A stretch of 64,000 bases of DNA from Candidatus Kaiserbacteria bacterium. Its GTDB lineage: Bacteria > Patescibacteriota > Minisyncoccia > Phycocordibacterales > Phycocordibacteraceae. The notes under the pieces were generated by a model. The model made no database searches and had not been told where the DNA came from. It worked only from the letters and a program-made list of their open reading frames with translations. The first letter of the stretch is position 1. The number at the start of each line of letters is the position of its first letter. Position numbers and translations under genes: made by a program. Below, piece after piece: positions 25,512 to 60,083 of this stretch. The stretch is from the NCBI GenBank assembly GCA_963699165.1, contig OY969413.1, positions 468,562-532,561 on the forward strand, in the 5' to 3' direction.

Positions 25512-27704
25512 ATGAATCCGGGCGATCCTATCGAGAAGCATTTCCCGCGACTGAAGCCCGACCAGCAGCAGGCGCTTCGCAAGCTCGGCATACGGACGAT
25601 TCGCGACCTGCTCTATCATTTTCCTGCGCGCTATGAAAATGCGGGACCGACCGGAACCATCGCGGGCGCGACTAAGGGCGGAACGGTCACATTGTATGGA
25701 ACCGTGCGCAAACCGGACATCCGCAAAACATGGAAAACAAGGCGACCGATTGCGGAAGCGTGGCTCGAGGACGCGTCCGGCAAAATCAAAATGATGTGGT
25801 TTAGCCAGCCGTACATCGCGAAAAGTTTGCACGACGGCATGGTGGTGAAAGTGAGCGGACGCGTCGCGGGCGAAGGCGCGAAGGCGTATCTCGCGAATCC
25901 CGAAATCGATAAAACGCCGATTAACCCGGAAGAAATTCACGATTCGCTTTTTGCGGCCGCAACGGCGCCGGACGATAAACAGCTGTATCCGATTTATCCC
26001 GAAAGCCACGGCGTTTCGTCGCTCTGGTTTTTGCACGCGCTTAAAAAAGTGTTCGAGGCGCATGCGCACGAAAAGCTCGATGACCCGATTCCTGCGGATA
26101 TTTTGGAACGATACAAATTGCCGGCGCTTTCTTCCGCGCTTGTATTCATCCATGCACCTCGGCGGCTCACGGATGCGGAAGCGGCGCGCAAACGATTTGC
26201 ATTTGAGGAAGTGTTTGCTCTTCAAATCGTGATGCAACAGCGCCGCCGCGCGCTTTTGAAAGAAGAGGCATTGCCGGTTGCGGTAAACAGAAAAGCACTC
26301 GCCGACTTTGTGGCGTCGTTCCCCTTCCCCGCGACGGACGCGCAAACACGCGCCATCGAAACAATCGTCGGCGATTTTGAAAAAACGCATCCGATGTTGC
26401 GGCTTCTTGAGGGCGATGTCGGAAGCGGAAAGACCGCGGTCGCGGCGGCAACCGCGTATTTGGTCGCAACCTCGCTCCCGAAAGGCCGCATCGCGGGAAC
26501 GCTTCAAGTCGCATACCTATGCCCGACCGAAATTCTCGCGAAACAGCATTTCTCCACGTTCGTTTCATATTTTAAAGACCACCCGATACCGATTGGGCTC
26601 ATTACCGGAAGCGAATGCCGAAAATTTCCCTCGCGCGTCCGCTACGAAGAATCCGCGAAACTCTCGAAGGCCGTGTTCAAGAAAATGGTCGCGAACGGCG
26701 AGATACCGATTGTCATCGGCACGCATGCGCTCATCGAAAAATCGCTTTCGTTTAAATATTTCGCGTACGCCATCATCGATGAACAGCACCGCTTCGGCAT
26801 CGTGCATCGTTCCGCACTGCTCCGGAAAAGTGCTACTGGTATGATATATCATACCAGTAGCACTCAGCCGCATTTGCTTTCGATGACGGCGACGCCGATT
26901 CCCCGCACACTTGCACTCACCATTTACGGCGACCTCGACCTTTCAGTGCTCGACGAGATGCCGGTTGGCCGCAAACCGGTTATCACGGAAGTTCTCGGAC
27001 CCGAGAAACGCGAGAAAGCGTATGAGCGCGTTCGCGCCGAACTTGCGCTCGGCCATCAGGCATATGTGATTTGCCCGCGCATCGACGAACCCGACCCCGC
27101 AAAAGAAATGGCGCTTCAGGCAAAATCGGTCAAAGCTGAAGCGGCTCGGCTAGCGAAGTTCGTTTTCCCGGATGCAACCATCGGCATTCTGCACAGCAAG
27201 ATGAAGACATCGGAAAAAGAAGAAACGATGACATCATTCGAAAAAGGCGAAATCGACATCCTCGTAGCAACCTCTGTCGTGGAAGTCGGCGTGAATGTGC
27301 CGAATGCAACGGCGATTCTCATTGAAGGCGCCGAACGATTCGGCCTCGCGCAATTGCACCAGCTTCGCGGCCGCGTGATTCGCTCGACGCACCAGTCATA
27401 CTGCTTCGCACTGCCAGAATCGTTCGGCGAAGCAACGCGCGACCGCATGAAAGCTTTTTCAACTGCAAAAAACGGTTTCGAACTCGCCGAATACGACCTC
27501 GCACTTCGTGGCGCCGGCGAACTCACCGGCGGGCGGCAGTGGGGCGTTTCTGACATCGCGATGGAAGCGTTAAAAAACATAAAGCTGGTCGAAGCGGCGC
27601 GCACCGAAGCCGCCCGTCTCGTCGCGCGAGACCCCGAGCTTCGCACCGAACCCGAACTCGCCCACCGCGCGCACGCGGCCGAAAAAGAAATGCATTTGGA
27701 ATAA
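25512..27704 (+). CDS. recG: ATP-dependent DNA helicase RecG
   Basis: 730 aa; Walker A GDVGSGKT; DEQHRFGI box; helicase C motifs; N-terminal wedge region. Confidence 0.85.
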   Translation: MNPGDPIEKHFPRLKPDQQQALRKLGIRTIRDLLYHFPARYENAGPTGTIAGATKGGTVTLYGTVRKPDIRKTWKTRRPIAEAWLEDASGKIKMMWFSQPYIAKSLHDGMVVKVSGRVAGEGAKAYLANPEIDKTPINPEEIHDSLFAAATAPDDKQLYPIYPESHGVSSLWFLHALKKVFEAHAHEKLDDPIPADILERYKLPALSSALVFIHAPRRLTDAEAARKRFAFEEVFALQIVMQQRRRALLKEEALPVAVNRKALADFVASFPFPATDAQTRAIETIVGDFEKTHPMLRLLEGDVGSGKTAVAAATAYLVATSLPKGRIAGTLQVAYLCPTEILAKQHFSTFVSYFKDHPIPIGLITGSECRKFPSRVRYEESAKLSKAVFKKMVANGEIPIVIGTHALIEKSLSFKYFAYAIIDEQHRFGIVHRSALLRKSATGMIYHTSSTQPHLLSMTATPIPRTLALTIYGDLDLSVLDEMPVGRKPVITEVLGPEKREKAYERVRAELALGHQAYVICPRIDEPDPAKEMALQAKSVKAEAARLAKFVFPDATIGILHSKMKTSEKEETMTSFEKGEIDILVATSVVEVGVNVPNATAILIEGAERFGLAQLHQLRGRVIRSTHQSYCFALPESFGEATRDRMKAFSTAKNGFELAEYDLALRGAGELTGGRQWGVSDIAMEALKNIKLVEAARTEAARLVARDPELRTEPELAHRAHAAEKEMHLE
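26829..26864. repeat. 36-bp perfect palindrome embedded in frame in recG
   Basis: AGTGCTACTGGTATGATA|TATCATACCAGTAGCACT; encodes SATGMIYHTSST inserted between the DEQHRFG box and the MTATPIPRTLA motif. Confidence 0.8.
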
Positions 27705-32757: not shown

Positions 32758-32862
32758 GAAAAAGTAAAAGATGCCTAGTCCGGTTCACGGTGTGTTTCTG
32801 GCTAAAACATTTTTGCAGCAAAAATGTTCGCCCGAACACATCTTGCAGCAAGATGTGTTTTA

Positions 32863-56932: not shown

Positions 56933-57814
56933 TTATAAAAGTCTTATTTGTGCTAAATGGTCTTTGATTCTTTTCTCTGCCATTTCGCAGTACTCCGGCG
57001 AAATCTCGATACCGACATATTGTCGCCCATGATTAAGAGCTGAAATAGCAGTAGTACCTGAACCCATGAAAGGATCTAGGATTGTTTTAGCAGTAGTTGA
57101 AGATATGATTCTGTCTATCAAATCTACTGGAAAAGCCGCCGGGTGTTCGTTATTCATTTCTTGCGTAAATTCCCACACGTCTCCATGCCCATTTGCTTTC
57201 GGAGCAAGTCTAAAATCTTTTTTCGCGATGAGATAAATAACTTCGTATGTCGGCACAAAATAACCCGGATTAAAATTGAAACCACCTTTCCGGCGCCAGA
57301 TAATTATTTGGCGAACGGGAAAACTGTTCACAATGTCCTGTCGGTCCTGTAATAGTCCGTTTTGCACGCGCCATTTGTGATTATAAAAAATTGCGCCGTC
57401 GTCAGGGATAATCCGCATCATTTCAATAAGGCATCGTCTCTGCCAGTCCACATACTCCTCATGCGGCATGCAGTCATTGTGATGAGAATATCCTTTTTGG
57501 AGTGCAGCGTTCGCCCATTTGCCTCCACGTCCGTCTTTCATTCCGTTGCCAGTAGAATTCTTCAGATTGTACGGAGGCGAAGTTACGACGATGTCGATTG
57601 AACCGTCAGGAATTCTTTTCATTACGTCAACGACATCTCCGCATATGATTTTATTCAAAAAAGTATCGGCAAAAGATGGCTCCTGCCTTTTTTGTGAGAC
57701 AGCGCGTTTTGGTTCCTTTTTAAGAGTAAGCGTAGGCATATTGCTTTGGAAATAATACGCGAAAATCCTCGCAAATCCTAGTGGTGTTTGAAAAGCAATA
57801 TGCATTTTTTGCAT
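56933..57814 (-). CDS. DNA methyltransferase, beta-class amino-MTase (SPPY motif IV; N4-cytosine or N6-adenine)
   Basis: DIVVTSPPY and FDPFMGSGTT (motif I after motif IV = beta permutation); alternative start MPTLT at 57739; ORF reported from a TTG at 57880. Confidence 0.8.
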   Translation of the reverse strand: MQKMHIAFQTPLGFARIFAYYFQSNMPTLTLKKEPKRAVSQKRQEPSFADTFLNKIICGDVVDVMKRIPDGSIDIVVTSPPYNLKNSTGNGMKDGRGGKWANAALQKGYSHHNDCMPHEEYVDWQRRCLIEMMRIIPDDGAIFYNHKWRVQNGLLQDRQDIVNSFPVRQIIIWRRKGGFNFNPGYFVPTYEVIYLIAKKDFRLAPKANGHGDVWEFTQEMNNEHPAAFPVDLIDRIISSTTAKTILDPFMGSGTTAISALNHGRQYVGIEISPEYCEMAEKRIKDHLAQIRLL

Positions 57815-57823
57815 ATTGCTTTT
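57791..57823. promoter_or_regulatory. 14-bp perfect inverted repeat with 5-T spacer overlapping the methyltransferase start region (candidate operator)
   Basis: AAAAGCAATATGCA-TTTTT-TGCATATTGCTTTT. Confidence 0.5.
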
Positions 57824-57877
57824 CAATAGATGGCTTACTTTATAGATATTCGAACTGTTGCAAGTTTTGCAACAGCT

Positions 57878-57927
57878 CAACTCTCCCGCTTGCCGTGGAG
57901 GAGGAGGTCGAGGGCGTATTGCATCGA
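57878..57927. repeat. ABC-3'-end repeat copy 1 (minus strand encodes FSMQYALDLLLHGKRES*)
   Basis: Alignment with 61433-61496. Confidence 0.85.
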
Positions 57928-59135: not shown

Positions 59136-60083
59136 TTATTTCAGGAGTTGGGTAATGAGCGCGACCATTTGCTCTTTGTTTTTCGGGTCGCTCTCGGCCG
59201 TCAAAAGAGTAAGCGCAGTGAGCGCGCTCGGATTGATATTTCGGGCCGTTTTTACTTTCGCCTTTCGCAAGAACCAGATAAACGCAAAAGCACCCGAGCG
59301 CTTGTTGCCGTCGGTAAACGGATGGTTCTTGACCATGAAATACAGAAGATGTGCGGCCTTTTCTTCGATGCTCGCGTACACCGGCTTCCCGCCAAACGTC
59401 TGCATGACGTTACCGACAATTCCTTCCACATTCCCGGCGGCTCGTTCTTGCGCAAAAATTTCCGTCGCTTCTCCTTTCTTTAAAAGTTCCGAGCGAAGAT
59501 TGGCGATTGCCTCGGTAAGTTCGACGCCGGTGAGCTTAATTGCTTTCTTGGTAATTCCGACCGGCGTGAGCGTACCGCGGTCGTAGGCATCGAGCGAAAT
59601 CCATGTTCCCGAAAACTCTTTTACCAATTCGAGTATCGCTTTCGGATCGAGAACGACGTGTTCGGGCAAAAGCGCCTGAATGTCGCCGACCGACTTCATA
59701 AAGGCATCGTAGTTTTTGCCGATTTGCTTGCGATTGATGGTGTACCCCTTCGTGATGTGCTCGCGAAGCGTCTTGGTCGCCCATTGGCGGAATTCGATGG
59801 CAACTTTCGAATTTGTCCTGTATCCGACGCTTAAAACAACATCCAATGAATACATGGCCGTCGGCTTGAAGGAAGTAATGTGCATTTTTTGCACATTACT
59901 CTTTTCATCAATTTCCTTGTCTGTGAAGATCTTTCTGATGTGTTTTGTGACCACCGAACGTTCAATTCCAAAAACGTCTGCAATCTGGGCTTGTGTCGCC
60001 CAAATGCTCTCGTGTTCGAAATCGCCACGCAGTTCGATTGCGCCATTCTTCGCCTGATATATCACCACCTTATTTTTCGCCAT
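59136..60083 (-). CDS. Fic/Doc-family protein with an RhuM-like N-terminal domain
   Basis: N-terminus AKNKVVIYQAKNGAIELRGDFEHESIWATQAQIADVFGIERSVVTKHI (RhuM-like); Doc motif HPFTDGNKRSGAFA. Confidence 0.75.
   Translation of the reverse strand: MAKNKVVIYQAKNGAIELRGDFEHESIWATQAQIADVFGIERSVVTKHIRKIFTDKEIDEKSNVQKMHITSFKPTAMYSLDVVLSVGYRTNSKVAIEFRQWATKTLREHITKGYTINRKQIGKNYDAFMKSVGDIQALLPEHVVLDPKAILELVKEFSGTWISLDAYDRGTLTPVGITKKAIKLTGVELTEAIANLRSELLKKGEATEIFAQERAAGNVEGIVGNVMQTFGGKPVYASIEEKAAHLLYFMVKNHPFTDGNKRSGAFAFIWFLRKAKVKTARNINPSALTALTLLTAESDPKNKEQMVALITQLLK

Follow-up and report, generated by a model that had tools for sequence, protein, structure and literature searches.

A perfect 36-bp palindrome in frame within recG of a Kaiserbacteria genome is a copy of a dispersed palindromic element

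In a 64-kb stretch of DNA from a Candidatus Kaiserbacteria bacterium, referred to here as the window, the recG gene for the ATP-dependent DNA helicase RecG contains a perfect 36-bp palindrome that is read in frame as part of the protein. There is no doubt that this palindrome belongs, as one of its copies, to a dispersed palindromic element of Kaiserbacteria-like Patescibacteria, which we call F1, nor that some force holds the core of this element constant at the DNA level. The explanation that we favour, with a probability of about 0.5, is that the F1 core, CTGGTATGATATATCATACCAG, would be an operator-type protein-binding site with a TrpR-family protein as its candidate binder, that it would be brought into coding loops by short-patch copying, and that the full 36 bp would result from a symmetrisation specific to the window lineage.

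The host open reading frame (ORF) is 100% identical to the NCBI-named RecG of a Minisyncoccia bacterium; its product matches RecG of T. maritima (1gm5) over the full length with E=2.8e-118 and RecG of E. coli with 4.9e-98, and the Pfam domains RecG_wedge, DEAD, Helicase_C, and RecG_dom3_C place it among the RecG proteins. The palindrome, AGTGCTACTGGTATGATATATCATACCAGTAGCACT, is made of two 18-nt arms that are 100% complementary, with a spacer of 0 nt between them. It takes up 12 whole codons, from a first codon position to a third, with its centre (between positions 26846 and 26847) coinciding with a codon boundary, and the residues that it encodes, 440–451 or SATGMIYHTSST, sit between helicase motif II (DEQHRFG) and motif III (TATPIPR). 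This bears out the initial annotation of this DNA, in which a perfect in-frame palindrome of this length had been reported between DEQHRFG and MTATPIPR. No further copy of the 36-mer was found within the window at up to three mismatches, nor in 100 shuffles of it. The window has 14 palindromes with arms of at least 11 nt, against 0–1 after triplet shuffling, and besides the recG copy there is no other deep in-frame palindrome in it.

The insertion itself was directly observed by comparison with the 120 closest RecG proteins (80–85% identity). The linker between the two motifs measures 19 aa in 114 of them (e.g., TMHRQKLATKGAIAPHLLS) and 28 aa in three, namely the RecG of the window, P0017, and P0083, each from an independent assembly, while the palindrome-encoded residues align to gaps in the RecG proteins of T. 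maritima and E. coli; the in-frame insertion proposed in the initial annotation was thus confirmed by the alignment of orthologues. Its size needs restating, given that the palindrome does correspond to the 12 or so added residues proposed, whereas the net gain is nine codons (28 vs. 19 aa), with the flanking codons differing too: at the DNA level, 30 nt encoding QKLATK-GxIA are exchanged for 57 nt encoding SALLRK-(S/D)A(T/A)(G/S)MIYHTS(S/P)T-Q. The accompanying statement that RecG proteins are normally contiguous at this point did not hold. When 70 aa from around the loop were searched against proteins, only short fragments and no carriers were returned, with linkers of 18–45 aa, and three other close homologues (P0041, P0100, and P0057) have linkers of 23, 25, and 63 aa in the same loop, the 63-aa one being an arginine/glycine-rich segment. 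The motif II–III loop is a general indel hot spot. The known recG carriers are the three named, and since the same allele is present in their three independent assemblies (that of the window and those of loci L001 and L002), with the frame kept and the peptide conserved, the assembly artefact that had been contemplated as the source of the 36-mer is ruled out. A structure predicted for the window RecG from 40 close homologues was unusable, with a mean predicted local distance difference test (pLDDT) score of 56 and values below 50 in the loop region. The features of the recG locus are collected in Table 1.

Table 1. Features of the recG locus in window coordinates.
Feature	Position	Strand	Basis or remark
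recG, ATP-dependent DNA helicase RecG, 730 aa, host gene	25512..27704	+	ORF, homology
Allele-specific 57-nt segment SALLRK-SATGMIYHTSST-Q replacing 30 nt QKLATK-GxIA	26811..26867	+	Codon alignment of 3 carriers and 3 nearest non-carriers; linker lengths in 120 homologues
36-bp perfect palindrome, 12 codons	26829..26864	.	Outer 8 nt per arm palindromic in the window lineage only
20-bp core TGGTATGATATATCATACCA, unit common to the dispersed family F1	26837..26856	.	Exact match
16-bp segment GTATGATATATCATAC, half-sites GTATGA / TCATAC, nearly invariant	26839..26854	.	35 copies compared

Conservation among the three recG carriers was directly observed at the level of nucleotides. For each pair of carriers, identical residues are encoded by the same codon in a fraction of about 0.5, which amounts to saturation of synonymous sites, and despite this saturation, ATG ATA TAT CAT AC is identical in all three. 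The perfect palindrome reaches 36 bp, with arms of 18 nt, in the window only; it measures 22 bp in L001 and 24 bp in L002, where the arms are 11–12 nt long. The arms also change in pairs that keep the symmetry, with GGT...ACC in the window and L001 corresponding to AGT...ACT in L002, and with ACT...AGT in the window corresponding to GCT...AGC in L002, where the GCT...AGT of L001 represents an intermediate with a G-T mismatch. In addition, the right arm of the window has AGC where its relatives have TCC or CCC, a switch of serine codon with two or three base changes that exactly mirrors the left arm, and this switch suggests that one arm was copied from the other.

The distribution of the allele, again a direct observation, does not follow clades. 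When the linker is masked, every carrier has proteins without the insertion as its nearest relatives, the other two carriers come only 111th and 119th of 119 in similarity to the window RecG, and in quartet counts each carrier joins its non-carrier neighbour at 29–31 informative sites, against 1–4 sites for either alternative. The insertion alleles are homologous because the carriers share allele-specific flanking residues, and being homologous yet against the gene tree, they lead to the conclusion that the loop moved between lineages or was replaced repeatedly. A long recent recombination tract around the recG loop was not seen, with synonymous identity there being barely raised and the core codons explaining the rise.

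A copy of F1 is defined here as one that contains the core TRGTATGATATATCATACYA and has flanks unrelated to those of other copies, and both features were found in the recG copy. This family membership goes beyond the initial annotation, whose suggestion of a miniature palindromic insertion tolerated in a loop otherwise comes close to the evidence. A scan of 596 Gb, with one genome per species, returned 39 sites for TRGTATGATATATCATACYA in 37 genome loci, against about two hits expected by chance for a 20-mer according to a rough estimate of our own, and 29 of these sites (27 loci) belong to metagenome-assembled genomes (MAGs) of Patescibacteria. Several sites may be present in one MAG, as in JBAYHD01, the genome of P0083, with 10 sites, and in PFBL01 and MFLS01, with four sites each. 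The flanks are alike only between orthologous copies and, therefore, the shared unit measures only about 20–24 bp; no donor–recipient links were found through shared flanks of non-orthologous copies, and a scan of viral contigs gave no match. Separately, six Flavobacteriaceae genomes (L003, L010, L028, L029, L032, and L035) contain the 20-mer core once each, in a conserved AT-rich intergenic region unrelated to the context found in the Candidate Phyla Radiation (CPR).

When the palindrome is divided into layers of paired positions counted from its centre, layers 1–8 (the central 16 bp) are 94–100% identical over 35 copies. Outside this segment we directly observed symmetric covariation: layer 9 is G:C or A:T and is paired in 80% of the copies vs. 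55% expected (p=0.001); for layers 11 and 12, the paired share is 57% and 54% vs. about 35% expected (p<=0.006), with all these p-values being inflated by copies that are related by descent. Beyond layer 12, no conservation was found among the F1 copies. The F1 core is also kept at the same site in orthologue pairs with 54% and 68% aa identity, and within it, the half-sites GTATGA and TCATAC of GTATGATATATCATAC are 10 bp apart from centre to centre.

Inside genes, F1 copies were found in recG (three lineages), uvrB (three), uvrC (four), the genes of a methylpurine glycosylase (two) and an HhH-GPD glycosylase, tatD, and the genes of a MurD-like ligase and a glycosyltransferase, dus, and the genes of a class-I Trp/Tyr tRNA synthetase and a ZIP transporter (two); DNA-damage gene families thus represent six of the 11 host families, far above their genome share. 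Compared with solved homologues, the F1 insertions amount to 19 aa in UvrB, about 11 aa in Dus, and 10 aa in Mpg, and in the uvrC of four genomes, F1 swaps native codons one for one, with RADRIIYEVT becoming K/N-ATGMIYHTT. Eight of the nine copies in long open frames are read in the frame that gives G/S-M-I-Y-H-T, which is identical on both strands, and one of the two remaining frames contains TGA. The uvrC copies, the uvrB copy of L022, and the window recG copy have a common extension, GCTACTGG, and share GCT ACT GGT ATG ATA TAT CAT ACC. Identical core codons are present in two additional UvrB carriers, which were not selected for codon usage because they were found by protein search. Orthologues of the other F1 host genes, which could serve as empty sites, were present neither in the window nor in the recG loci.

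The other half of the F1 copies, approximately, is intergenic, typically directly 3' of a stop codon, and their link to gene starts and to a TrpR-family gene was directly observed (gene calls in the related loci are ORF-based, and Pfam-checked only for the genes named). Copies are placed 4–40 nt before the next start at argS (three genomes), pheT, gatA, rpsL, and infC, and one copy lies between pheS and the regulator gene. In three loci (L008 5023–5042, L021 4531–4550, and L033 855–874), the TGA or TAG with which the upstream gene ends is part of F1, which fills most of the spacer, 19–38 nt before the next start codon. In L008 and L015, a gene of 141–143 aa stands between two copies that are about 460 bp apart, and its product scores 30.4 bits against Pfam Trp_repressor (cutoff 27), with the L021 protein scoring 26.5 bits; at two to three mismatches, such bracketing is also found in L021, in L017, and in the distant Giovannonibacteria locus L013 (43% GC), in which the TrpR-family gene is divergent and adjoins pheS. 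Across loci, this regulator gene encodes 135–145 aa, the flanked helix-turn-helix (HTH) gene keeps the conserved synteny glyA-gene-argS, and an F1 site is located upstream of the regulator's own gene in L008, L015, L021, L017, L013, and L004, at -1 to 27 nt from the start codon. TrpR-family regulators such as TrpR and HisR/YerC bind 20-bp palindromic operators, and about half of the hisR genes carry their own site upstream (PMC9413887). The F1 core is likewise a palindrome of about 20 bp, the 10-bp spacing of its half-sites would suit a dimeric HTH protein, and we infer that the TrpR-family protein is the best candidate for its binder. Other motifs were also compared. The SOS box was rejected, with the non-canonical LexA motifs of Bacteroidetes, GGA-N5-TCC and CTAA-N5-TTAG, being unrelated to the F1 core, while the resemblances to the Fur box, CIRCE, and the NikR half-sites (GTATGA-N16-TCATAC) are leads only, with a presumable mismatch in spacing or in the conserved parts.

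Other palindrome families were directly observed to behave in the same way as F1. Related DNA totalling about 385 kb contains 84 perfect palindromes whose arms measure at least 11 nt, vs. 0–1 in triplet shuffles, which is an excess of about 80-fold; 47 of these 84 lie within open frames of at least 200 codons (open stretches whose status as genes is unconfirmed), and among the 38 non-F1 palindromes in such frames, 22 are in codon phase (p=0.0016 vs. 1/3). All four indel blocks of a six-gene recG alignment are palindromic inserts, and further in-frame palindromic inserts in related recG genes are found at L001 3370–3390, 3463–3501, and 4004–4025 (the recG of P0083), at L043 4669–4701, and at L041 10969–10988. 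A single recG holds two copies of the 22-bp palindrome CCCCGAAGGGGCCCCTTCGGGG, each in a different frame, with another one just upstream of this gene, and the palindrome is also present in a non-sister recG. An in-situ inverted duplication was ruled out as the origin of the PKGPLRG insert, given that the same 22-bp palindrome is present in another frame of the same gene and at other loci. The units CGAGGTGACACCTCG and CAAGGTCGAACCTTG recur in recG, uvrA, uvrC, and tatD, and the double hairpins that they form in sister lineages have coordinated compensatory changes in both units. In UvrB, a single loop (after RPTGLIDPELxVRP) has inserts in 67 of 120 close homologues (P0241–P0360; L046 11309–11341; L045 ~11300), belonging to at least seven sequence families scattered over the UvrB tree, and the DNA of one of these inserts was confirmed to be another perfect palindrome, distinct from F1 and having arms of 15 nt. 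Insert-bearing UvrB alleles have the flank VRPVSEG and empty ones VRGVVETG, and the UvrB of the window's genome has an empty loop. As a separate observation, the UvrB of L022 has a second, 13-aa insertion relative to solved UvrB at residues ~330–342, NIGTYDVPNMVPD, a peptide that resembles the reverse reading of yet another palindrome, at L043 9509–9535 (HVGTYDVPTS).

According to the operator explanation, the F1 core would act on double-stranded DNA as the predicted site of a dimeric HTH protein, the candidate being the TrpR-family protein encoded by the flanked gene, in a way similar to the 20-bp TrpR/HisR operators. The element would spread by short-patch copying or conversion, and not by classical transposition, because the uvrC copies replace native codons one for one; its targets would be the spacers just upstream of genes and those protein loops where length and frame allow it. 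In recG, 57 nt would have taken the place of 30 nt in the motif II–III linker, with the extra GMIYHT-containing loop being tolerated, and the core would then have been kept constant by selection for binding and/or by conversion among copies; a regulatory effect might be exerted from inside recG. In the window lineage, the arms would finally have been symmetrised outwards to the perfect 36-mer, most simply by template switching or by inter-arm conversion. Several points weigh against this explanation. At 1.3 kb into the gene and 0.84 kb before its end, the recG copy occupies codons 440–451 of 730, away from the promoter region of any regulated gene, and an operator or promoter role is not evident for it because it is mid-gene and without a -35 partner or terminator features. 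Moreover, no TrpR-family regulator gene was found within the 64-kb window. Many unrelated palindrome families behave alike, in frame and in the same genes, and this indicates a general, sequence-independent process for which no specific regulator is needed. Lastly, a simple dimer site would not be expected to covary at its non-conserved outer positions, and neither the frame bias (8/9) nor the enrichment in DNA-repair genes is explained by an operator model.

The most serious competitor is a purely selfish miniature palindromic element of the type of the Rickettsia palindromic elements (RPEs) or of REP (repetitive extragenic palindromic) sequences, which would spread in a hairpin-dependent manner and survive in harmless sites, namely short spacers between genes and tolerant loops of dispensable proteins such as the enzymes of DNA repair, without any host function; we consider it quite possible, though short of probable, and the operator and selfish readings are not fully exclusive. 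The multiple copies with unrelated flanks, the in-frame insertions in several genes, the conflict of the distribution with the recG gene tree, the scatter of the UvrB insert families, the occupation of the same loops by several other palindrome families, and the large excess of strong palindromes are all in its favour; the arm covariation would fit a hairpin intermediate, the enrichment in non-essential repair genes would fit survival where the harm is least, and the link to a TrpR-like gene mirrors that of REP sequences with the REP-associated tyrosine transposases (RAYTs). However, old orthologous copies keep a perfect core amid saturated synonymous sites, where a neutral parasite would decay unless there were conversion among copies. 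No transposase was seen linked to F1 at the loci covered, and the flanked gene encodes an HTH protein in conserved synteny and forms no mobile unit; target-site duplications and constant ends are missing, with insert sizes that vary (27, 57, and ~30 nt, and 0 in uvrC); and the placement 4–40 nt upstream, conserved for the same genes from one genome to another, looks functional. A broader proposal, which we put forward only tentatively and hold to be rather unlikely, is that Kaiserbacteria-like CPR bacteria would actively write short perfect palindromes of several families, in phase, into coding loops by templated short-patch copying, with repair genes (recG, uvrA, uvrB, uvrC, glycosylases, and tatD) being preferred or uniquely tolerant, with arms and copies evolving in concert, and with F1 doubling as a TrpR-family site.

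The remaining alternatives fare worse. A hairpin in the transcript, working as an intercistronic processing or stability signal or as a translation-pausing structure in repair-gene mRNAs, is improbable, even though the predicted fold is very stable (-33.4 kcal/mol and z=-6.9 for the window copy, with z=-2.2 and -3.1 for L001 and L002), the arms covary, and many copies lie between co-directional genes. A very stable hairpin is predicted for either strand of the window copy (z ~-7), and as the F1 sequence is strand-symmetric, its orientation carries no information. On the sense strand, no excess of G.U over A.C was found in layers 8–12 (14 vs. 10, p=0.54), so the symmetry is strand-neutral, and the central 16 bases are invariant with the would-be loop included, which is unusual for a structure-only signal. 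Neither a terminator-like site nor a T-run, as in an intrinsic terminator, was found in 26500–27200, and in Rfam 15 no family reached its gathering score, with two miRNA-precursor models scoring 23 and 19 bits vs. the 55–56 needed. As for promoters, either strand of GTATGATATATCATAC contains the hexamer TATGAT, which resembles a -10 and follows TGn; a consensus scanner takes it as a -10 at only some of the intergenic F1 copies, and the promoter scan at the recG copy gave no match and no -35 partner. In the absence of a G.U bias, a T-run, a promoter partner, or an Rfam match, nothing favours a role at the mRNA level, and the symmetry of F1 looks like a property of the DNA that comes from a dimeric binder, from arm-to-arm correction, or from both. 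It is very improbable that the palindrome is a local mutational product, made by in-situ inverted duplication or quasi-palindrome correction in an unconstrained loop: the loop is an indel hot spot and the outer 8 nt of each arm do look like one arm copied onto the other, but this origin is refuted for the core, of which at least 29 identical copies stand elsewhere between unrelated flanks. Neither arm is similar to what the empty allele reads, and such an origin would account for no more than the lengthening from about 22 to 36 bp. The faintest chance of all goes to selection on the peptide, where G/S-M-I-Y-H-T would be a motif with a function and the palindrome would arise only as a consequence of codon choice. 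The reading frame shared by nearly all intragenic copies and the conserved peptide of the recG carriers would agree with it, but about half of the copies are non-coding, the same codons, ATA included, are used in every coding copy and even in those ascertained by protein, and the host proteins are unrelated, with loops as the sites; a metagenome scan degenerate at all synonymous positions returned only the already known contig and thus no alternative encoding of the peptide.

Some further hairpins of the window are recorded here as separate observations. An apparently non-coding region of about 240 bp (394–628), preceded by a (GA)n run at ~347–361, contains five different consecutive perfect or near-perfect hairpins, at 394–438 (21-nt arms), 460–500, 503–520, 540–577 (18-nt arms), and 598–628, all unrelated to the recG palindrome. 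At 32806–32859 there are two adjacent hairpins, AACATTTTTGCaGCAAAAATGTT and AACACATCTTGCaGCAAGATGTGTT, with close counterparts at L041 17854–17908 directly following the smpB and GIY-YIG genes, and the two may act as a pair of conserved terminators or represent a small RNA. Finally, two ORFs of 315 aa on the minus strand (56933–57880 and 59136–60083) each have near the 5' end a palindrome centred on ATGCAtttttTGCAT (57788–57826 and 59874–59900), which could be operators or in-frame inserts in a possibly paralogous gene pair.

If our explanation is true, the tiny and dense genomes of CPR/Patescibacteria would carry very short palindromes that go unnoticed as in-frame loops of ORFs, with consequences for gene annotation, for marker-protein phylogeny, where indel "signatures" would not be inherited as clades, and for the reading of CPR-specific insertions. 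An operator-type site inserted in a coding sequence and kept unchanged over long times as DNA would mean that regulatory DNA and protein share the same bases, and if templated copying and the TrpR-family site both hold, protein-coding loops would be carriers of cis-regulatory DNA sites. The TrpR-family protein, together with aminoacyl-tRNA synthetase genes and repair genes, would offer an initial way into how transcription is regulated in an uncultivated lineage, and the enzymes of branched or damaged DNA that contain the hairpin inserts would be either targets of templated copying or simply the most tolerant hosts.

Among the closest known systems are the RPEs, which are imperfect palindromes of about 100–150 bp specific to Rickettsia and were reportedly described by Ogata and colleagues in Science in 2000. 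Similarly to the RPEs, F1 and its companion families are dispersed, intergenic as well as in frame inside conserved genes as extra loops, in several families, and with a patchy presence, and the in-frame trait is seen for F1 in the recG, uvrB, dus, and mpg insertions. In contrast to them, F1 measures 20–36 bp, is perfect, has about 10 copies per genome, and occurs in Patescibacteria, which sets it apart from the RPEs in length and family; its core is invariant across saturated lineages, it is tied to a regulator gene, to gene starts, and to repair genes, and in uvrC it is a same-length replacement. The RPEs are treated in reviews such as PMC2229807. The REP and REP-RAYT units, or REPtrons, are palindromic repeats tagged with GTAG or CGTC (PMC3733652). 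F1 resembles them in being a multi-copy palindrome of 20–40 bp, two copies of which flank a small gene, and in an arm covariation that suggests a hairpin logic. REPs differ in being extragenic, in their copy number of tens to hundreds, and in an unpaired tag, GTAG or CGTC, that is conserved, whereas about half of the F1 copies are coding, a MAG has at most 10 exact copies, and F1 lacks a conserved tag, the GTAG inside the window arm being lineage-specific; the flanked gene there is, moreover, a Y1 (IS200-like) transposase, and here it matches Trp_repressor. A MITE (miniature inverted-repeat transposable element) does not describe F1 either, given that no duplication is seen between filled and empty recG alleles, 30 nt are replaced, and insert sizes vary down to zero in uvrC.

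Palindromic repeats with coding potential, named MJRE, were reportedly found in Methanocaldococcus jannaschii by Suyama and colleagues (FEBS Lett, 2005), and a few of them lie inside ORFs without breaking them, as F1 does; they are longer and mostly extragenic, with three coding copies and without a link to a regulator or to repair genes. DNA uptake sequences are said, by Davidsen and colleagues (NAR, 2004), to be biased to genome-maintenance genes in Neisseria and Pasteurellaceae. They are comparable to F1 as a short repeated DNA signal, often in inverted pairs, that is over-represented in DNA repair and recombination genes, but they are 10–12-mers with ~1000–2000 copies per genome that arise by substitution, while the F1-like families are several, with about 10 copies each, and are mostly insertions. 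Quasi-palindrome mutagenesis by template switching, reportedly studied by Ripley and by the Lovett laboratory, makes an imperfect repeat perfect by copying one arm, which fits the multi-nucleotide TCC to AGC serine switch and a covariation without selection; it accounts for symmetrisation and extension, but not for the shared core or its spread. With respect to the operators of TrpR-family regulators, the differences are that the sequence is not the same, that the CPR protein has 135–145 aa vs. less than 110 and is barely at the Pfam cutoff, that F1 sites are on both sides of the gene, and that coding copies made by insertion are no known feature of TrpR-family regulons. The likeness lies in the 20-bp palindrome, TGTAcTnGTnnACnAgTACA or TGTAnTArnnnnyTnTTACA in one case and TGGTATGATATATCATACCA in F1, and in the arrangement of a site directly upstream of the regulator's own gene with others upstream of amino-acid-related genes (PMC9413887).

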